Shown piece after piece: positions 9,844 through 38,462 of a stretch of 39,360 nt of DNA (its first letter is position 1; the number at the start of each line of letters is the position of its first letter). Below the pieces are notes generated by a model, which saw only the letters and a list, made by a program, of their open reading frames with translations, searched no databases and was not told the DNA's origin. The translations under genes and the position numbers were made by a program. Origin of the DNA: an uncultured bacterium (GTDB lineage: Bacteria; Patescibacteriota; Minisyncoccia; Phycocordibacterales; GWA1-40-21); assembly GCA_903831305.1 (NCBI GenBank), contig CAIKXE010000007.1:1-39360 (forward strand), given 5' to 3'.

Positions 9844-11142
9844 ATGATAAAAGAAATATTTAAAAAATGCATCGTTAAAATACTAGAACTTGAGGCTAAG
9901 GCAATTATTAAGAAATATCGGCCTCGGATTATTGCCGTGACTGGGAGCGTGGGTAAAACCTCTACCAAGGATGCCATCTATTCCGTCATGGCAAAAAACT
10001 TTTATGCTCGAAAGAGTGAAAAAAGTTTTAATAGTGACATCGGTGTACCACTGACGGTTTTGGGTTGTAATAACGCTTGGCTGAATCCCCTAAAATGGTC
10101 CAAAAACATTTGGCAGGGAGTGGATTTGATTGTTTTCAAAAAGGCTTATCCCGAGTGGCTGGTGCTTGAGGTGGGGGCGGATCGGCCTGGGGATATAAAG
10201 AAGATTACCAAATGGCTCAAGCCAGATATTGTGGTGGTGACCAAGTTTGCTTCTGTACCGGTGCATATTGAGTATTTTAAATCTAAGGATGAAGTGATAG
10301 CGGAAAAAGGCAATCTGGTGACCGCACTCAAGCACGATGGAGTTTTGATATTAAACAGTGATGATGCGGATGTCTTTGCTTTCAAAAATAAAACGACTAA
10401 TAAAATAATTACTTACGGTATGATGGGTGATGCGGAGGTTCGAGCCACAAATTACTCTGTCTATTATAAGGAGGATACAGGGGAACCTTTTGGCGTCCAT
10501 TTCAAAGTGGAGTATGCTAATAATTGTTTACCCGTAAAAATAATTGGCACCTTGGGTTATAACAATATTTATTCAGCACTTGCGGCCCTAACAGTGGGCA
10601 TTAGTTTGGGCTTGAACTTGGTGGAGGCCACGGAAAATTTGTCTCGGCATATTGCTCCGCGAGGAAGGATGAATTTAGTTAAAGGTATAAAGCGCTCCAC
10701 CATTATTGATGATACTTATAATTCCTCACCGGTGGCGCTAAATTCTGCCCTGGAGACCTTGCGTGATCTAAAAACTAAATATCGAAAGATAGCGGTGCTC
10801 GGTGATATGATGGAGCTTGGAAAACACACCAGTGATGAGCATAAACAAGCTGGTATTCTAGCGGCCACCGCTTGTGATATGCTTGTGACCGTAGGTCTGC
10901 GAGCTAGGACTATTGCTGAGAGTGCTATTGATGCCGGTTTGGATGAAGATAGTATCTTGCAGTTTGATACCTCAGTGGAGGCGGGAAAATACATTAAAGA
11001 TATTTTGCAAGAAGGGGATGTTATCCTGGTGAAAGGTTCACAGTCTGTCCGAACGGAAAAAGTGGTTAAAGAAATTATGTTTGAAACTGAACGCTCGGCA
11101 GAACTTCTGGTCCGCCAGGAGCCAGAGTGGCTGGCGAAGTAA
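9844..11142 (+). CDS. murF: UDP-N-acetylmuramoyl-tripeptide--D-alanyl-D-alanine ligase MurF
   Basis: Mur ligase P-loop VTGSVGKTSTKD, DDTYNSSP, and C-terminal ILVKGSQSVRTEKVV. I prefer the ATG at 9844 over the TTG at 9823, which overlaps ftsI. Confidence 0.85.
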   Translation: MIKEIFKKCIVKILELEAKAIIKKYRPRIIAVTGSVGKTSTKDAIYSVMAKNFYARKSEKSFNSDIGVPLTVLGCNNAWLNPLKWSKNIWQGVDLIVFKKAYPEWLVLEVGADRPGDIKKITKWLKPDIVVVTKFASVPVHIEYFKSKDEVIAEKGNLVTALKHDGVLILNSDDADVFAFKNKTTNKIITYGMMGDAEVRATNYSVYYKEDTGEPFGVHFKVEYANNCLPVKIIGTLGYNNIYSALAALTVGISLGLNLVEATENLSRHIAPRGRMNLVKGIKRSTIIDDTYNSSPVALNSALETLRDLKTKYRKIAVLGDMMELGKHTSDEHKQAGILAATACDMLVTVGLRARTIAESAIDAGLDEDSILQFDTSVEAGKYIKDILQEGDVILVKGSQSVRTEKVVKEIMFETERSAELLVRQEPEWLAK

Positions 11143-11146
11143 AAAT

Positions 11147-11680
11147 ATGAAAATAATAATTTGCACGGAAAATGGAGCCAAGGTCAAAGCCGTGAAAGAG
11201 GTTTTGGAAAAAGTCTGGATAGATTTTTCCTTAGTTACGGAAAAGTTTTCCTCAGATATTGCTGAGCAACCGTTGTCCGAGGAGGAGGGGATAAAGGGAG
11301 CCATAAACCGAGCAAATAACGCTAGGTTAAAATATCCAGGTGCGGATTATTTTATTGGGATGGAGGGGTATGTGGATACAAATAATTATGGGATGTTTCT
11401 GGCGGGGATTGTGGTGATAATAAATAAAGCGGGAAAGATGGGTATTGGCTCTAGTGCCAAGATGCCACTGCCAGATTTTATTCAAAAGAAGATTGAAGCT
11501 GGGTTTGAACTTGGACCGGTGATAAAAGAACTAATGAATGATGAGGAAAATAATATTCGTCAATATGATGGGACTAACGGTTTATTATCTAAAGGTTTAT
11601 ACAATCGGGTGGATGAATTCAAAGATGCCACTAAATGTGCCTTAGCCCCTTTTAAGTCTCCGGAGTTTTATGAAAAATAA
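11147..11680 (+). CDS. Inosine/xanthosine triphosphatase (YjjX-like non-canonical NTPase)
   Basis: 177 aa from the internal ATG at 11147, just after the murF stop. MKIIICTENGAKVKAV.., SDIAEQPLSEEEGIKGAINRANNAR and ALAPF resemble YjjX/DUF84. Confidence 0.75.
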   Translation: MKIIICTENGAKVKAVKEVLEKVWIDFSLVTEKFSSDIAEQPLSEEEGIKGAINRANNARLKYPGADYFIGMEGYVDTNNYGMFLAGIVVIINKAGKMGIGSSAKMPLPDFIQKKIEAGFELGPVIKELMNDEENNIRQYDGTNGLLSKGLYNRVDEFKDATKCALAPFKSPEFYEK

Positions 11681-11693
11681 GTTAAAATAAAAA

Positions 11694-11719
11694 GAGTCAC
11701 CCGAGGGGTCGGGTGACTC
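11694..11719 (-). terminator. Intrinsic terminator for the 11746-11997 gene
   Basis: gagtcacccg/cgggtgactc 10-bp stem with a 6-nt loop. The A-rich run on the + side gives a T-run on the minus strand. Confidence 0.6.
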
Positions 11720-11745
11720 CTCGGGTGGTATGTTGTCCCTCTTCT

Positions 11746-11997
11746 TCACGTCTGACTGGCCAGCATCTCACAGCGGTGGATCTGGATGGCCTGGACCGTT
11801 CGACCAAGCTTCTCCGCCAGTATGCGGTCGCAGGGGTGGTTTGGGCTGATGATGAGTTGTTCGTCACCTATTGTCCAGTGACTTCTGGCGTTTTTCTGGT
11901 GGACTGCTCCTTTGCGGTAGTTGCGGGCCGAGGAGATCTGCCTTTTTCGTGGGTTATTATGTCGCCACTTTTTTTCAAATAAATATCTTCCGGCCAT
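11746..11997 (-). CDS. Small basic protein with SANT/Myb-like helix-turn-helix segment (GC-rich mini-gene)
   Basis: 83 aa from ATG 11995-11997, preceded by AAGGGAG. The N-terminus is basic. HWTIGDEQLII..DRILAEKLGRTVQAIQIHR fits a W..E..L / LGRT..A...R Myb-like pattern. It has its own promoter and terminator. Confidence 0.55.
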   Translation of the reverse strand: MAGRYLFEKKWRHNNPRKRQISSARNYRKGAVHQKNARSHWTIGDEQLIISPNHPCDRILAEKLGRTVQAIQIHRCEMLASQT

Positions 11998-12052
11998 TTT
12001 GACTCCCTTTTCTTCCATGCATAGAGAACTGTCTTGTCTATTTTCTATCCAG

Positions 12053-12081
12053 ACTATATATGTGTTTGTGGATATTGGCAA
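12053..12081 (-). promoter_or_regulatory. Sigma70-type promoter for 11746-11997
   Basis: On the minus strand: TTGCCA (12076-12081), 17-nt spacer, TATAGT (12053-12058). Confidence 0.5.
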
Positions 12082-12105
12082 GTTAAATAAATAAATAAAT
12101 AAGTT

Positions 12106-12133
12106 TTGATTTTTCTGTAAAAAATGTTATATT
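12106..12133 (+). promoter_or_regulatory. Candidate promoter for tRNA-Glu
   Basis: TTGATT (12106-12111), 16-nt spacer, TATATT (12128-12133), about 18 nt upstream of the tRNA. Confidence 0.4.
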
Positions 12134-12151
12134 CATTTTGTCGGAAATACT

Positions 12152-12223
12152 GGCCCTATCGTCTATCGGTTAGGACGGAGCCTTCTCAAGGCTCAAAGCG
12201 CAGTTCGATTCTGCGTAGGGTCA
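12152..12223 (+). tRNA. tRNA-Glu(CUC)
   Basis: Manual cloverleaf. Acceptor ggcccta/tagggtc (one G-U), D stem gtc/gac, anticodon stem gagcc/ggctc with loop ttCTCaa, 4-nt variable loop, T arm cgcag-ttcgatt-ctgcg, discriminator a. No encoded CCA. Confidence 0.9.
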
Positions 12224-12405
12224 CAAAATGAGGTCACGAATTTTGTGACCCTAAGTAAGCAAATGACTTTGCTTACGTCCAGAATCGAACGGCGGAGTAA
12301 ATTTTTTTAGCAGAAAAAATAACGAGCCGGTGCCTAGGCAAATTTGAGCGACGGCGAGAATTTAGCCGAAGGAGAATGGGTATTCCCGTTTCTGCGTAGG
12401 GTCAC
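12210..12405 (+). repeat. 196-nt direct repeat unit, copy 1 (starts inside the tRNA 3' end and ends with a second copy of that 3' end)
   Basis: Near-identical to 13247-13440. Contains perfect hairpins tagggtcacaaaat/attttgtgacccta (12216-12253) and gtaagcaaa/tttgcttac (12255-12276). Ends with ttctgcgtagggtcac (12390-12405), the same 16 nt as tRNA positions 12209-12224. Confidence 0.9.
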
Positions 12406-12454
12406 CGCGTCAAACGCGGTGTAGCACGTCAGACGTGCTCACCAAACAAAAACG

Positions 12455-12712
12455 ATGCATTATGTATACCTATTATTAAGTCTAAAAGATAATGGATTGT
12501 ATATTGGTTATACGAATGATTTGAAGAGAAGATTTGAGCAACATAATAAAGGATTATCTCTATCAACTAAATATCGCCTACCCTTTAAATTAGTTTTCTA
12601 TGAATGTTTTTCAAATTCAACAGACGCTCGTAGTAGAGAAAAATATTTAAAAAGTGGGTACGGCCGGCAACAGCTTAAAGACATATTAAAGAACACTTTT
12701 AATAAAGTATAG
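12455..12712 (+). CDS. Stand-alone GIY-YIG (URI-type) nuclease domain protein
   Basis: 85 aa. YVYLLLSLKDNGLYIGYTNDLKRRFEQHN carries the GIY..YIG..R..H/N core, and REKYLKSGYGR is typical of the short UPF0213-like family. No obvious SD sequence. Confidence 0.8.
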   Translation: MHYVYLLLSLKDNGLYIGYTNDLKRRFEQHNKGLSLSTKYRLPFKLVFYECFSNSTDARSREKYLKSGYGRQQLKDILKNTFNKV

Positions 12713-12770
12713 ATAATATTGTGGTTCACGCTATTTTGTTTGCGAAGCAACCTTATAATTTTGATGAAAA

Positions 12771-12808
12771 AATTTAGCCGAAGGAGAATGGGTATTCCTG
12801 TTTCTGCG
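12771..12808 (+). repeat. Partial third copy of the repeat-unit 3' end
   Basis: aatttagccgaaggagaatgggtattcctgtttctgcg matches 12359-12396 with 1 mismatch. It diverges at cacaatcac (versus tagggtcac). Confidence 0.8.
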
Positions 12809-12817
12809 CACAATCAC

Positions 12818-12846
12818 TTGACAAAGTATGATGATACATATATGAT
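12818..12846 (+). promoter_or_regulatory. Near-consensus sigma70 promoter for 12891-13127
   Basis: TTGACA (12818-12823), 17-nt spacer, TATGAT (12841-12846), directly abutting the partial repeat. Confidence 0.55.
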
Positions 12847-12890
12847 AGTGAATAGAAAAAGCCTCAACAAAATATAGAAAGGGGGCCCTT

Positions 12891-13127
12891 GTGACAAAGC
12901 GCGGAAACAGAACTGCGTATGGTATACCATTTATTTGGGACAACCATTGCTGGTGCACTGTGCCATCAGAGACGATGCAGAAGGTTCGTATCACCCCGTC
13001 CAAGATGGAAGGTGGCGCCTGGGCAGTATTTGATGCTCGAGGAGAGATGCACGAATTGATTGGTGAGGATGTGGAAAAAAGAGCCTTCGCAATCGCGGTG
13101 GCATTCGCTGAACAAAAGGAGCACTAG
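12891..13127 (+). CDS. Hypothetical small protein (GC-rich mini-gene, 78 aa)
   Basis: GTG start preceded by AAAGGGGG (5-nt spacing). Promoter upstream and terminator downstream. No recognisable domain. Confidence 0.5.
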   Translation: MTKRGNRTAYGIPFIWDNHCWCTVPSETMQKVRITPSKMEGGAWAVFDARGEMHELIGEDVEKRAFAIAVAFAEQKEH

Positions 13128-13147
13128 GGCAAGAACCTAGAATCGCA

Positions 13148-13182
13148 AACCCTACGGTAGCCAACCAGCACCGTGGGGTTTT
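13148..13182 (+). terminator. Intrinsic terminator
   Basis: aaccctacgg/ccgtggggtt 10-bp stem (one G-U) with a 13-nt loop, followed by tt..ttt. Confidence 0.5.
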
Positions 13183-13246
13183 AAACTTTAACAAATAATT
13201 TTGTTCCACCCTTTTACCATTGTCTCTAAAGTGTTCCATTCCAGAC

Positions 13247-13440
13247 TCTGTAGGGTCACAAAATGAGGTCACGAATTTTGTGACCCTAAGTAAGCAAATG
13301 ATTTTGCTTACGTCCAGAATCGAACGGCGGAGTAAATTTTTTTAGCAGAAAAAATAACGAGCCGGTGCCTAGGCAAATTTGAGCGACGGCGAGAATTTAG
13401 CCGAAGGAGAATGGGTATTCCCGTTTCTGCGTAGGGTCAC
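13247..13440 (+). repeat. Direct repeat unit, copy 2 (194 nt)
   Basis: Identical to 12210-12405 except for a CG deletion in the leading tRNA-end segment (tctgtagggtcac) and one substitution (c12267 versus t13302, in a hairpin loop). Ends with ttctgcgtagggtcac (13425-13440). Confidence 0.9.
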
Positions 13441-13543
13441 AAAAGCGGGTTTTTAGGCTATTGACAAACTTATAGTAATTTGCCACTCTTTGAGTAGAGA
13501 AAGAGTCATTTTTCTGAATCACGCGCTCAACCAGGAGAAGGGT

Positions 13544-13744
13544 ATGAAGTACAAAGTGTGGGTATGCAAGATCGTAGTCGCAGAAGGTGAGAAAACACCT
13601 CCGGGATTTGACTCGGAATTGCGCACAGCAGCTGTCAGTGTGGTAGAGAGCCGTGGTGTTCAGGTTCTGTCATGTGCCAGTGGCTGGTATGAAGAGCCAG
13701 CCCAGACACTGGACGACATCACCCTCGGCTCTGAAGTATCGTAA
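13544..13744 (+). CDS. Hypothetical small protein (GC-rich mini-gene, 66 aa)
   Basis: ATG at 13544 preceded by AGGAGAAGGG. A strong terminator follows immediately. I prefer this ATG over the RBS-less start at 13490. No recognisable domain. Confidence 0.5.
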   Translation: MKYKVWVCKIVVAEGEKTPPGFDSELRTAAVSVVESRGVQVLSCASGWYEEPAQTLDDITLGSEVS

Positions 13745-13797
13745 ACCGCCTCACGTGGCAAGGAATTCCGCCTTGCATACGTGAGGCGGTTTTCTTT
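13743..13797 (+). terminator. Strong intrinsic terminator
   Basis: aaaccgcctcacgt/acgtgaggcggttt 14-bp stem with an inner ggcaagg/ccttgc helix, followed by a T-run. Confidence 0.7.
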
Positions 13798-13842
13798 AAT
13801 GTTTCATCTCAGATCTTGTAAACTCACAAAATGAGGTAATTG

Positions 13843-13876
13843 AAAAGACGCTCGAGCAGGGGCCCGAGCGTCTTTG
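13843..13876 (-). terminator. Intrinsic terminator for 13894-14163
   Basis: aaagacgctcg/cgagcgtcttt 11-bp stem. On the minus strand it is followed by TTTT. Confidence 0.5.
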
Positions 13877-13893
13877 TGGTGAGGGCGGCTTGC

Positions 13894-14163
13894 TCAGTCC
13901 TTGAAGGGACTGCGAGCCGCCGCGATTTGCTCCTCCGTGTAGCGGGGGAGCCGGGGCAGAGGGCGGGTCAGGTGGCGCTCTGTAGCTGCCACTCTGGCTC
14001 GTGCCGCTCCGTGTTGGCCGAGAGTTTGGCAGATGCCACGGTACTCGCCTTCTCCTCCGCCGAACTCCGTGCAGGCCACGGCAGCCGCATACGGAGCAGC
14101 TACGTGCCGCTCTCGCATCACGGCGGCAGCCCTCGCGGTCATTTTCTCAACTTGGGTTGGCAT
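13894..14163 (-). CDS. Hypothetical Ala/Arg-rich small protein (GC-rich mini-gene, 89 aa)
   Basis: ATG preceded by AAGGAG (9-nt spacing). Consensus promoter upstream and terminator downstream, all on the minus strand. Visibly above 60% GC. Confidence 0.55.
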   Translation of the reverse strand: MPTQVEKMTARAAAVMRERHVAAPYAAAVACTEFGGGEGEYRGICQTLGQHGAARARVAATERHLTRPLPRLPRYTEEQIAAARSPFKD

Positions 14164-14214
14164 GGGTCATTACTCCTTTAGTTTACCCCGCAACTCCAAT
14201 ACAATCTACATAGT

Positions 14215-14244
14215 ATTATAACGCACTTAATAGCCTTTTGTCAA
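14215..14244 (-). promoter_or_regulatory. Consensus sigma70 promoter for 13894-14163
   Basis: On the minus strand: TTGACA (14239-14244), 17/18-nt spacer, TATAAT (14215-14220). Confidence 0.55.
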
Positions 14245-14260
14245 GCTCTTAAAATACGGC

Positions 14261-21952: not shown

Positions 21953-22093
21953 ATGATGGACATTCTCACTCGTTGGAGTGACGGTGTGAGAGACACCGTG
22001 GATAGAATGGTGTGCCGATATCTGATGGCACGCGTGGTGGGGATTTTTATTCTCACCGGAATGTTTCTCCTCGGTTGCTGGTTGGGATGCTGA
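21953..22093 (+). CDS. Candidate 46-aa small membrane protein (below the ORF-track length cutoff)
   Basis: Manual translation: MMDILTRWSDGVRDTVDRMVCRYLMARVVGIFILTGMFLLGCWLGC. AAAGGG lies 7 nt upstream of the ATG, and a consensus promoter lies about 48 nt upstream. It has a C-terminal TM helix. Competing antisense ORFs exist. Confidence 0.4.
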   Translation: MMDILTRWSDGVRDTVDRMVCRYLMARVVGIFILTGMFLLGCWLGC

Positions 22094-25041: not shown

Positions 25042-25290
25042 CTAGTGCCAGGAGAGGTAGGCGAAGGCGGAGAAACAGAAGACCATCATGAGTCGGAACA
25101 GATATGGGCCAAGAAAGGCCCACCAGCTCTTGATCTTTCTCTGGCCTTCGGTCATGCTTGTGCCAAACGAGGTGATCACTTGCTCCATATCGCTTGCGGC
25201 TTCGTTGATGTCATTTCGGGCAAGCTTTGCCATGTCGCACAGAAGCCAAACGGCCAGTGACCCAAAGACCAACGACATTACATAACCCAT
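25042..25290 (-). CDS. Small two-TM membrane protein (GC-rich mini-gene, 82 aa)
   Basis: ATG preceded by GAAGGAAAA. Hydrophobic N-terminal (VMSLVFGSLAVWLLC) and C-terminal (WWAFLGPYLFRLMMVFCFSAFAYLSW) segments flank a polar helical core. Confidence 0.55.
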   Translation of the reverse strand: MGYVMSLVFGSLAVWLLCDMAKLARNDINEAASDMEQVITSFGTSMTEGQRKIKSWWAFLGPYLFRLMMVFCFSAFAYLSWH

Positions 25291-26664: not shown

Positions 26665-26826
26665 GTGAACAAGCATCATCGGGGTGGTCGTGAAGCCACG
26701 AGCCGGGAGTCAGGCTGGCTATGGGGGCTACTGCTGGTGGCCATCATTGTCGCGGTTTTTATTATGATCGCAGGACTTCAACCGTCGGCCGTCGCCAAGA
26801 CACCGGTTACGACGGGTAGTAGATGA
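26665..26826 (+). CDS. Candidate 53-aa single-TM protein (GC-rich mini-gene, below the ORF-track cutoff)
   Basis: Manual translation from GTG: (M)NKHHRGGREATSRESGWLWGLLLVAIIVAVFIMIAGLQPSAVAKTPVTTGSR. AAGGAGGG lies 7-8 nt upstream, and a terminator follows. Confidence 0.45.
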   Translation: MNKHHRGGREATSRESGWLWGLLLVAIIVAVFIMIAGLQPSAVAKTPVTTGSR

Positions 26827-35575: not shown

Positions 35576-37246
35576 ATGTCTACCCCAGTTGAAAAAATAA
35601 AAGAAAGATTAAACATTGTGGATCTTTTGGGTACCTACTTGAAGCTCGAGAAGGCCGGGAAGAATATGAAAGCACGGTGCCCATTTCACAATGAGAAAAC
35701 CCCTAGCTTTTTTGTCTCGCCAGACCGTGATTCCTATTATTGTTTTGGTTGTGGCAAGAAAGGAGATATCTTTACCTTTGTGCAAGAATTTGAAGGAGTG
35801 GATTTCTTTGGGGCGCTGAAAATGCTCGCCGAGCGCACCGGGGTGGTTCTTGAACGCGGGAACTTTGATAAGAAGGATGATAAGGAAGCAATATTTAATG
35901 CCCTAGAGGCCGCCACTCAATTCTTTGAATCAAATCTACCTAAATCAAGTAGTGCGCAAAAATATCTGGAAAAAAGGGGACTGACTGAGAAGACCATCAA
36001 GGACTGGCGCATTGGCTTTGTTTCCGATGATTGGCGAACACTCTATGATTATCTGAGTGCTAGAAAGTTTACCGATAGTGAGATAGAACAAGCCGGACTT
36101 ATTAAGAGAAATGAAACCAGGCAGGATAGTTTTTATGATCGTTTCCGTGGCCGGATTATGTTTCCGATCCGGGACTCCGTCGGCCGAGTGGTGGGTTTTT
36201 CTGGGCGGATTTTGCCAGAAAATGATGATGGTAAGTCAGCTAAATATTTAAACTCTCCAGAAACCGCGGTCTTTAATAAATCCCGCTTGCTTTATGGTTT
36301 TGATCTGGCCAAATTAGCGATTAAGAAGTTTGATTATGCGGTGATTGTGGAGGGGCAGATGGATATTATCATGTGTCATCAAGCTGGATTTCAAAATGTG
36401 GTGGCGACTTCTGGTACGGCTCTGACCCCGGAGCACCTCACTCTTTTACGCCGAATATCAAACCGGGTGATTATGGCTTTTGATGCCGATAAAGCCGGTT
36501 TTAATGCCGCCACCAAGGCCTGGCAGTTAGCCTTGTCACTTGGTATGGAGGTGAAGATTGCGGAATTTAAGGAAGGTAAGGATCCAGCCGAGGTGATCCT
36601 GGGGACGGAGGGTAAAGAAAAATTTAAGGAAGCGCTTAAAGAGTCCATGCATATTATTGATTTTTATTTATCCAAGATTTTGTCAGAAGGGCTAGATGAG
36701 AGAAAGTTGGGTAAAGAAATTCAGGAAAAGTTATTACCATTTCTGGCTTTGATAGAAAGTAGTATTGAAAAGTCCCATTGGGTAAAAAAGATTGCGGACA
36801 AGTGCCATATCAGTGAAGTGGCTATCTGGGAAGATTTAAAAAAAGTGAAAGTAGAAGCTAGCCCAACCGGGGCGGAGACCAAGAGTCCCGCTTTTCGGGA
36901 GACGGCGACCGTGGGCAAGATTGACTCCATTGAAAAAAGGATTTTAGGAATAATAAATTGGCAAGAAAAGGATTCAGAAAAGATTATTGATATTAAAATG
37001 ACTAAAGAAAGGGTTAAAGAGATAATCGGAGAGGAAGATTTTAAGAAGTGGCAGAGAGTGACGGAGCAAGTTTTAAATGAAGCCACCTTTGAGGCCGAGC
37101 AGTATTATGAGAAGAAAAAGTTACAAGGGGTGCTAGATGAGCTTCTCATGGAGCTCGAAAAGGAGTATATTACTAAGGAGCTTGCGAAGGCCAAGACGCC
37201 TCAAGAGCAAAATGATTTGATTAAAAGATTAGCTAAACTTAAATAA
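35576..37246 (+). CDS. dnaG: DNA primase
   Basis: Zinc finger [33 protein letters not shown] polymerase core, and TOPRIM ([18 protein letters not shown]). Confidence 0.95.
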
Positions 37247-37247
37247 T

Positions 37248-38462
37248 ATGGCCAAAAAAACAAATAAAAAAGCAGTGAAAAAAGCCAAAAAAATAGTAAA
37301 GAAGGTAATTAAAAAGGCTGTTAAAAAAGTGTCTGCTAAAAAATCTAAAACTAAATCTCGATCCAGAAATAGTAGTGATAAGAAGAAGGAGTTTGAGCTA
37401 AAGACTCTGAAGCTTTTAAATAAAGGGCGTGAACGCGGTTTCGTCACCTATGATGAGATTCTGAAGGAATTCCCTAATATTGAGATGGATGTGCTGTTTT
37501 TGGATGAGCTTTATAATCGGCTTTCTACCACGGGGGTGGATGTGCTTGAGGGTGGCGGAATGCTCAATATTGAAAAGGAAGAAGAATTGATAAAGAAGTA
37601 TGCTTATGGTGGACGCGGTGGGGATTCCTCATATGATTCTATCCAAATGTATTTGAAGGAGATCGGTCAGTATCCACTTATTTCCGCTAGCTCAGAAAAG
37701 GATTTGGCCCGTAAAATTCAACTAGGTGATGAGGAGGCCAAGAATTTGCTCGCCCGGGCTAACTTGCGTCTGGTGGTGTCCATTGCTAAAAAATATGTTG
37801 GCCGTAGTGCAGACTTGACCCTACTGGATTTGATCCAAGAAGGAAACCTGGGTTTGTTTAAAGCGGTGGAAAAATTTGACTGGACCAAGGGTTATAAATT
37901 TTCTACCTATGCTACCTGGTGGATCAGACAAGCTATTACCCGCGCCTTAGCGGATCAGAGCCGAACCATCCGTGTACCCGTGCATATGGTGGAGACGATT
38001 GCTAAATACAAGCAGTGCGTGCGCCGGTTGTCACAGGATTTGGGTCGTGAACCATTACCAGAGGAGATCGCTACCGAGATGGGGATTGAAATTGAAAAAG
38101 TATTTAATATTGAAAAGATTGATCAGGATACCGTGTCTCTAGAAACCCCGGTGGGTGATGATGGCGATGATGGCAAGAGCACCTTGGGTGACTTTGTGGC
38201 GGATGATAAAATCCTCTCACCAGATCAGGAGTCTTCACGCCGAATATTAAGTGATCAGGTGAAAGAGATCCTAGATGATTTGTCACTGAAAGAAAGAAAA
38301 ATTCTAGAAATGCGTCATGGATTGACAGATGGTGTCACTCACACCTTGGAAGAGGTGGGTAAAGAGTTTGGAGTTACTCGTGAGCGTATTCGTCAGATTG
38401 AGGCCAAGGCCCATGAGAAAATCCGCGTGCATCTAAAAATCAATCGTCTGCAAAATTACTAA
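37248..38462 (+). CDS. rpoD: RNA polymerase sigma factor RpoD with Lys-rich N-terminal extension
   Basis: Region 2 ([40 protein letters not shown]), region 3, and region 4.2 ([23 protein letters not shown]). The N-terminal ~45 aa are a K/A/V low-complexity stretch. Confidence 0.95.

Follow-up and report, generated by a model that had tools for sequence, protein, structure and literature searches.

We have analysed a GC-rich islet at positions 11681-14260 of contig CAIKXE010000007.1, from an uncultured bacterium of the Candidate Phyla Radiation (CPR), and conclude that its four small open reading frames (ORFs), here called o1 to o4, are probably genuine accessory small-protein genes limited to this Parcubacteria-type lineage. 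The genes would be self-contained and mutually unrelated, and would have reached the spacer by separate routes: o2 and o3 most likely as cargo in an array of cassettes that is anchored on the 3' end of a tRNA-Glu gene, o4 as the occupant of a slot behind yqeY, and o1 as a helix-turn-helix (HTH) regulator that may itself be array cargo in one relative. The window, which is the whole stretch of DNA analysed (39,360 nt), is the entire contig C7 of a metagenome-type assembly of 760,696 bp in 13 contigs, with 40.4% GC and an estimated completeness of 98.7%. Its gene content and its agreement with a published Parcubacteria subgroup (PMC9297842) indicate a CPR bacterium of Parcubacteria type. The evidence throughout is computational, and promoter and terminator calls are consensus matches.

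Genomes of the CPR (Patescibacteria) are regarded as streamlined, with few mobile elements, and those of the relatives compared here measure 0.5-1 Mb. The 2.6-kb spacer displays an active-looking gene turnover, both through cassettes that have a pseudo-tRNA end in common and through slots refilled with different or fast-evolving genes. The conserved tail of the cassettes and their fixed tRNA site could provide a handle on accessory-gene flow in uncultivated episymbionts. Additionally, two expression styles appear to be sharply split within one cell, with a core that is apparently leaderless and lacks Shine-Dalgarno (SD) motifs and GC-rich accessory genes that have leaders and SD-like motifs.

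Composition and design of the islet genes

A first-pass annotation, made from the letters of the window, had placed four small ORFs in the islet, and all are present exactly at the coordinates and on the strands it gave (Table 1). The compositional contrast it described with a backbone of about 40% GC held in a sliding-window check, with 50.6-65.9% in the ORFs (o1 52.8%, o2 50.6%, o3 52.2%, o4 65.9%) against 40.4% for the genome. Measured against 200-nt windows across the 760 kb (mean 40.4, standard deviation 6.6, 95th percentile 51%, 99.9th percentile 62.9%), o4 is extreme, as the genome-wide maximum, a 70% peak at 13573-14228, lies over it; o1-o3 are only moderately high, around the 95th percentile. 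GC-richness is not uniform, and the islet is a mosaic that includes a 29%-GC gene.

The unit design consists of an own promoter, a leader of about 40-60 nt, an SD-like motif, a GC-rich ORF and an intrinsic terminator. Near-consensus promoters had been reported and were recovered for o4 (12/12), o2 (TTGACA-17-TATGAT, 11/12) and o1 (10/12), and the promoter scan gave nine promoter-like sites in all against 4.5 +/- 1.9 in shuffles. The GC-rich hairpin terminators of the first description are present 3' of all four ORFs; those of o1 and o3 came from the terminator scan, and those of o2 and o4, both GC hairpins with T-tails, from inspection of the sequence. The SD-like motifs are AAGGGAG, 5 nt upstream of the ATG, in o1, AAAGGGGG in o2, AGGAGAAGG in o3 and AAAGGAG, 9 nt upstream of the ATG, in o4.

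The proposal of a class of autonomous micro-genes gains support from the same architecture in relatives and from SD motifs that are enriched only before GC-rich ORFs. The accompanying description of the genes as family-like does not hold, because the four share no detectable similarity with one another or with the rest of the genome; tblastn, blastp and Smith-Waterman z-scores revealed no paralogy among them or with other GC-rich mini-ORFs of the genome. At E <= 1, Pfam gave o1-o4 no domain other than a Cass2 match (0.039) that carries no meaning, and searches of Pfam, PHROGs and PDB sequences gave nothing for o2, o3 or o4. The only Rfam family in the islet is the tRNA, all remaining matches falling far under gathering scores.

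A putative cassette array at tRNA-Glu

The first-pass annotation captured the ORFs and signals of the islet but missed three further components, namely tRNA-Glu(CUC), a 29%-GC gene with a GIY-YIG domain (PF01541, 63.6 bits against a cut-off of 22.6) and a 202-nt direct repeat. The repeat (12204-12405 and 13239-13440, 97-99% identical, with a partial third copy) starts and ends with the 3' end of the tRNA, and its unit comprises hairpins, the tRNA 3' half in inverted orientation and a closing direct copy of the tRNA 3' end. Copies of the tRNA end occur five times in the window, at 12390-12405, 12802-12817, 13247-13260, 13425-13440 and about 13812-13827, the second, third and fifth of them degenerate.

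Cassette ends are shared between species. A tail of about 95 nt is common to six cassette ends from five species, each preceded by an unrelated ORF (alignment A4); it starts at the T-run of the terminator and ends ...GTGTTCCATTCCAGnCTCTGTAGGsTCAC, and its last ~35 nt align with the tRNA-Glu 3' half. Besides the genus itself, two or three other genera have the tail, with three copies in one relative, G012. The 59-nt junction that forms the o2 tail here, and that closes with a pseudo-tRNA-Glu 3' half, recurs downstream of tRNA-Glu in G003, G010, G013 and G023, with three occurrences in G012. Between the tail and the TTGACA of the following unit there are 0-4 nt in G012 (twice), in G013 and in the window, where the o2 promoter starts directly after the degenerate tRNA end at 12817; in the o3 cassette the TTGACA lies 20 nt past the tRNA-end copy. 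The o3 tail (repeat family D4) is a shortened, degenerate pseudo-tRNA.

The elements of the locus, stacked in tandem, lie between a full tRNA and partial copies of it, which is the arrangement that marks tycheposon-like islands. We therefore regard o2 and o3 as most likely carried by an array of cassettes whose anchor is the tRNA-Glu 3' end, an arrangement that would give the genes 'seeded between core operons' of the earlier description a concrete basis in these two cases. The anatomy fits the attL / P'-cargo-P / attR products of serial site-specific integration. Cassettes would enter by site-specific recombination at the tRNA end, a recombinase encoded elsewhere would act in trans, and each new cassette would displace older cassettes and their pseudo-tRNA ends outward. 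The homologue of o2 in a genome of the same genus (G005) sits after the rpsO-NYN gene pair, a place taken here by a different GC-rich mini-ORF, which suggests that cargo moves between slots.

Three genes for large serine recombinases (531-604-aa frames) occur elsewhere in the genome, at C11:6238-6708, C5:88284-88718 and C8:31274-31708, two of them within about 1.5 kb of tRNA genes (tRNA-Tyr and tRNA-Asn). Any of the three could be the enzyme that serves the cassette arrays in trans.

Structured units of about 180 nt also lie behind the tRNA-Trp, -Arg, -Pro and -Lys genes and the tmRNA gene of the same genome (C8:39505-39633, C4:48457-48570, C4:46280-46500, C5:98400-98530 and C4:145100-145315). 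In each of them the 3' end of the preceding RNA gene is repeated, first in inverted and then in direct orientation, and the inner motifs GCAAGCAAATGAnTTTGCTTGC, CGGCGGAG, an A/T hairpin and GAGCCGGTG are kept; many family genomes have related units, some of them arranged in tandem. Two stand-alone GIY-YIG genes of 85-90 aa, 40% identical (12455-12712 in the window and C4:145826-146097), each adjoin such a repeat unit, one behind tRNA-Glu and the other between smpB and the tmRNA gene. The tmRNA gene itself (C4:145315-145731, minus strand) was found by Rfam (98 bits) and missed by ARAGORN.

Within the genus, the orientation of tRNA-Glu relative to yqeY and murF varies (loci L013-L026), with the tRNA gene facing yqeY in G000, G004 and G011 and facing the other way in G003, G008, G010 and G001, which suggests that the tRNA segment has inverted repeatedly. 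A second tRNA-like sequence lies behind tRNA-Met at C2:~36990-37330 (about 290-630 of locus L043), with its halves GCGGGCGTAGCTCAACGG... and ...CCATCGCCCGCGCCA about 300 nt apart; the spacer between them contains AGATATAGTCC, reminiscent of a group I intron core, and Rfam at gathering threshold found nothing in this split region.

Homology, selection and fold of o1 and o2

The expected coding signature was recovered, as frame periodicity in o2, o3 and o4 and as purifying selection on homologues in o1 and o2. Full-length o2 has a homologue with 68% amino-acid identity in G005, and two metagenome proteins are 66% and 43% identical. Between o2 and the G005 gene, the proportions of nonsynonymous and synonymous differences (pN and pS) are 0.16 and 0.63, giving a dN/dS of about 0.13, as compared with 0.08 for yqeY in the same genome pair. 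An AlphaFold2 (AF2) model of o2 built from four sequences has six strands and a C-terminal helix (predicted local distance difference test, pLDDT, 85; predicted template modelling score, pTM, 0.73). No fold neighbour was found by Foldseek at E < 0.9, and the best Z in the VIA wide search (6.4) is below a meaningful level. Thus o2 is most likely a real gene, with homologues under purifying selection and a confident beta+alpha fold that has no structural match.

Homologues of o1 occur in 4 of 52 other family genomes, from four genera. The closest protein, P0003 from NCBI/JGI, is 69% identical, the syntenic homologue in G012 57%, and those of the three other genera 31-37%; additionally, five IMG/VR contigs (37-65% GC, with phage replication-type genes) encode a relative with 35-45% identity. 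Against G012, pN is 0.34 and pS 0.88, so that synonymous change is saturated and nonsynonymous change far lower. Conserved motifs are visible in the homologue alignments of both o1 and o2 (A1-A3).

The AF2 model of o1 (pLDDT 87) consists of an N-terminal helical hairpin and a C-terminal three-helix HTH (helices 43-50, 57-64 and 68-82). The best Foldseek matches of the model, to CDC5L Myb, homeodomains and NarL, are not significant (E 0.7-3; highest probability 0.85). The Myb-like segment noticed in the first-pass annotation is thus reasonable as a fold but finds no sequence-level counterpart in Pfam, where no family, Myb_DNA-binding and related models included, matches o1 at E <= 1; HTH_38 matches at 0.008 in one of the 11 members of the o1 family. 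The protein also weakly matches phrog_323, 'transcriptional regulator', the only PHROG match among the four. We consider o1 most likely a real gene, given its homologues under purifying selection and its confident fold, and the modelled structure indicates that it is probably a Myb/homeodomain-like HTH DNA-binding protein acting as a regulator.

The o1 homologue of G012 stands last in the array there, with its promoter abutting a junction. As a conjecture, an inversion of the tRNA could have stranded o1 beyond the array in the present genome, with the inverted tRNA-end copy in the repeat serving as substrate.

The slot behind yqeY

In 23 of 29 loci examined in relatives, yqeY is followed by a small ORF that has the same orientation and is preceded by an SD-like motif. 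These slot ORFs are about 53-190 aa long, mostly under 110, and in the loci inspected a TTGACA-17-TATAAT promoter lies just past the yqeY stop codon. Smith-Waterman comparison, with z-scores against shuffles, sorts them into two clusters, one of 10 genomes that includes o4 and one of 7 genomes, both spanning genera. The link of o4 to its cluster runs through the G003 gene, at a z of 6.5-6.7 that none of 300 shuffles reached. On this evidence o4 would be the form taken here by a small gene that evolves very fast and that, in most genomes of the family, lies behind yqeY with the same orientation and promoter arrangement.

Two styles of gene expression

Signals for translation initiation divide the genome by composition. 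We took the first start codon of every ORF of at least 50 codons and compared SD pentamers at -16..-9 with control positions. Such pentamers precede 10.3% of ORFs with GC >= 0.46 against a background of 3.8%, whereas in ORFs with GC < 0.46 they occur at 2.2-2.7% against 2.8-3.7%. A cruder gene set agrees that enrichment is confined to GC-rich ORFs. Long core ORFs have no excess of SD motifs (6-7% against a background of 8.7%), and core genes genome-wide exhibit a TAtAAT-like logo at -12 to -7 from the start codon, which suggests that core mRNAs are mostly leaderless.

The SD-like motif is kept in the diverged homologues of o1 and o2 and in the small genes of relatives at the locus, and thus appears to be maintained in accessory genes. 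The 16S rRNA genes of one genome of the same genus (G009) and two of the same family (G035 and G026) end ...GTGGA(T/A)(A/T)TTTTCAAAT, with no CCTCC there or in the following 400 nt. Loss of the anti-SD sequence in a Parcubacteria subgroup has been published (Tsurumaki et al. 2022, RNA 28:1041, PMC9297842). The present lineage resembles those bacteria in the CCUCC-less 16S rRNA of its same-genus and same-family relatives and in core genes without SD motifs; it differs in having a GC-rich gene class that keeps SD-like motifs, which the relevant passages of that paper do not describe. In two of the relatives (G009, locus L048, and G026, locus L050), the first unit past the 16S gene has a TTGACA-TATAAT promoter, AAGGAG or AAAGGAGG, and an ATG, so that an SD-type gene stands directly beside an anti-SD-less 16S gene.

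If the SD-like motifs are functional, they would need a reader other than the 16S tail, which bears on how initiation evolves after anti-SD loss. One could go further and propose an exchangeable pool of single-gene cassettes, similar to an integron in which the 3' end of a tRNA gene is the docking site, pseudo-tRNA halves are the cassette ends and the recombinase acts in trans. This pool and other GC-rich accessory genes would share an SD-dependent route that bypasses the 16S tail, a second and separately controllable initiation channel for accessory genes where the core is leaderless; we hold this extension to be rather doubtful.

Weighing the alternatives

Several observations weigh against our reading, some of them touching the array and the position of single genes, others the coding status of o3 and o4. 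The mobility of the cassettes is deduced from their anatomy, neither an excised circle nor an empty site having been observed, and no recombinase ORF lies in 11681-14260 or near the array. The sole PF00589 match of the genome is on another contig (C4:54948-55472), between the exonuclease III gene and rpsO; this tyrosine recombinase has an N-terminus that looks Xer-like by eye and a core gene context. In this genome o1 sits upstream of the tRNA, outside the array. As had been noted earlier, o3 has no convincing -10 behind its TTGACA, and the scan gave it no promoter of 9/12 or better. A profile of the slot cluster built without o4 fails to recover o4, whose orthology to the slot gene comes from one pairwise similarity and is suggestive. 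Finally, the assembly contains no 16S rRNA gene of its own.

For o3 and o4 the case for coding is made by signals and periodicity, and neither has a homologue in 5.8 billion proteins, the 52 family genomes or IMG/VR; for o4, 600 pattern matches in JGI metagenome contigs yielded no confirmed case. The transcripts of o2, o3 and o4 fold far better than shuffles (z -3.5 to -6.1), with -4.4 to -6.1 for o3, -4.2 to -5.05 for o4 and -3.5 for the o4 coding sequence (CDS) by itself, as compared with about 0 for core CDS segments. An 89-codon ORF is not improbable at 66% GC, and the region of o4 is open on both strands, with a 113-codon ORF opposite it. One or both units could thus encode structured GC-rich small RNAs, their ORFs being by-products of stop-poor sequence. 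We judge this less plausible than coding, and a minority view, for several reasons. In both genes an SD-like motif stands 6-9 nt from the ATG, and the reading frame extends through the transcript as far as the terminator. The annotated frames of o2, o3 and o4 top all six frames in G1-G2 and purine-1 periodicity, close to yqeY and the NTPase gene (G1-G2 of 0.24 for o3, 0.19 for o4 and 0.30 for yqeY). Additionally, ESM Atlas models of o3 and o4 have middling, moderately confident pLDDT values (0.71 and 0.65), o4 resembles the slot protein of G003 at the amino-acid level, and the units have no Rfam match.

The first-pass annotation had also considered the composition foreign or strongly biased, and a recent horizontal import could account for it: GC-rich ORFs from high-GC, SD-using donors, for example a host bacterium or phages of that host, would have been dropped beside a tRNA and not yet ameliorated. 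Such an origin would explain a composition far off the backbone, with o4 at the 70% genome maximum, as well as SD motifs suited to a donor with a normal ribosome; the site is a tRNA integration hot spot, and relatives of o1 are found on viral contigs of 37-65% GC. However, no donor emerged: searches of 5.8 billion proteins, 1.8 billion representatives, IMG/VR and JGI contigs yielded nothing outside the family for o2, o3 or o4, and the known relatives of o1 and o2 lie within the same bacterial family, those of o1 on viral contigs as well. Within the family, the homologues of o1 and o2 have diverged (31-69%), and yet most are GC-elevated in their own genomes (three of four for o1, and the one o2 homologue with DNA compared) and still bear SD motifs, which argues that the state is old. 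The promoters are of the host's own type, and the o4 slot is occupied in most relatives examined. We thus find recent import improbable, and consider GC richness and the SD-like motif to be, probably, properties of an accessory gene class rather than marks of recent arrival. The bias might be upheld by selection that favours stable, structured mRNAs or by residence in a mobile pool with a composition of its own.

A still more remote explanation is that GC-rich pieces of another organism were joined at repeats during assembly. The islet does contain a 202-nt repeat, contigs of relatives often break at tRNA-Glu, and the genome is a 13-contig metagenome-type assembly. Against this, exactly these proteins are present on 17-23 contigs of up to 72 kb from four independent sources, those of o3 and o4 identically on 20-23, and so are not one-off assembly products. 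Promoters, leaders and cassette tails resemble those of the host and run on from the flanks without a break, and the same architecture is found in relatives. We give an artefact very little credence.

Islet features and genomic surroundings

The islet is flanked by murF, a DUF84 NTPase gene, tRNA-Glu, yqeY and rmuC (Table 1). Core gene order is kept in relatives (ftsI-murF ... tRNA-Glu ... yqeY-rmuC), and the spacers differ in each species. The DUF84 NTPase gene (11081-11680; PF01931, 2.5e-42), which overlaps the end of murF and has an ordinary 40.7% GC, was not found at the corresponding locus in 12 relatives examined, and may be a local addition as well.

Table 1. Coordinates of the features assigned in the islet (positions of the window)
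Feature	Coordinates	Strand	Basis and remarks
GC hairpin terminator common to NTPase gene (+) and o1 (-)	11691..11722	.	14-pair stem; terminator scan and sequence
o1, 83 aa, basic, probable HTH protein	11746..11997	-	52.8% GC; homologues, AF2 model
o1 promoter TTGCCA-17-TATAGT	12053..12081	-	10/12; promoter scan
tRNA-Glu promoter, TG-extended	12106-12133	+	promoter scan
tRNA-Glu(CUC), putative array anchor	12152..12224	+	Rfam 52.5 bits and ARAGORN
Repeat unit copy 1	12225..12405	+	ends in direct copy of tRNA 3' end, 12390-12405
GIY-YIG nuclease-domain gene, 85 aa, 29% GC	12455..12712	+	PF01541, 2e-17
Partial repeat tail with degenerate tRNA 3' end at its close	12771-12817	+	repeat family D3
o2 cassette, 78-aa product	12818..13262	+	promoter 12818-12846, CDS 12891-13127, terminator 13149-13190, tail 13204-13262
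Repeat unit copy 2	13250..13440	+	closes with perfect tRNA 3' end copy, 13425-13440
o3 cassette, 66-aa product	13441..13837	+	TTGACA 13461-13466, CDS 13544-13744, terminator 13745-13795, tail 13793-13837
o4 terminator hairpin	13838..13872	-	sequence; 13-pair stem in fold
o4, 89 aa, Ala/Arg/Gly-rich ORFan	13894..14163	-	65.9% GC; slot downstream of yqeY
o4 promoter TTGACA-18-TATAAT	14215..14244	-	12/12; promoter scan

Recurrence of the design at 21.9, 25.0 and 26.7 kb, which the first-pass annotation had pointed out, is borne out by further GC-rich mini-genes at 21953-22093 (+), 25042-25290 (-) and 26665-26826 (+), with 9-10/12 promoters and, in two of them, terminators. They encode peptides of 46-82 aa with hydrophobic stretches, unlike the soluble-looking products of the islet, and are likely to specify small membrane proteins. 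A second extreme GC peak (69.5% over 200 nt) at C4:52162-52629 covers a 127-aa ORF of 64% GC that adjoins a TrmB-like regulator gene. Proximity of GC-rich genes to tRNAs is unsupported as a general property of the genome (16-24% against 12-19% within 1 kb).

Comparison with known systems

We found no description of this GC-rich mini-gene class in the literature. The phage 'moron', a concept of Juhala and Hendrix, is reportedly an autonomous promoter-ORF-terminator unit of deviating composition placed between genes. The islet units share with morons the single small ORF, own promoter and terminator, deviating composition, presence or absence among relatives and orphan products. They differ in lying between core chromosomal genes (murF and yqeY) and not in a prophage, in being GC-rich in every lineage seen, and in having SD motifs though relatives are without the anti-SD.

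In Prochlorococcus, tycheposons integrate at tRNA 3' ends and are flanked by partial tRNAs; in their islands newcomers displace older elements, and old events are recognizable by degenerate partial tRNAs (Hackl et al., bioRxiv 10.1101/2020.12.28.424599). The window has the same stacking of full and partial tRNAs, but the cassettes here are of 0.4-0.45 kb with one gene, and without integrase, replication or packaging genes.

Cis-mobilizable elements (CIMEs) and islets linked to ssrA or tRNA genes are att-flanked, lack an integrase and are mobilized in trans. The array resembles them as a set of att-flanked elements without an integrase and in its tandem accretion at a tRNA or tmRNA gene, but differs in that the genome yielded no partner integrative element whose att site matches.

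Integrons consist of IntI, attI and attC, with promoterless cassettes that end in an imperfect attC palindrome. Likeness to the islet lies in the array of single-ORF cassettes, the conserved site-like end across unrelated cargo and the stacking at a fixed site. Here, however, no IntI adjoins the array, the cassettes stack at the 3' end of a tRNA, and they close with pseudo-tRNA halves rather than attC hairpins, as judged without an attC model. In a further departure from integrons, the islet cassettes have their own promoters (11/12 for o2) and terminators.

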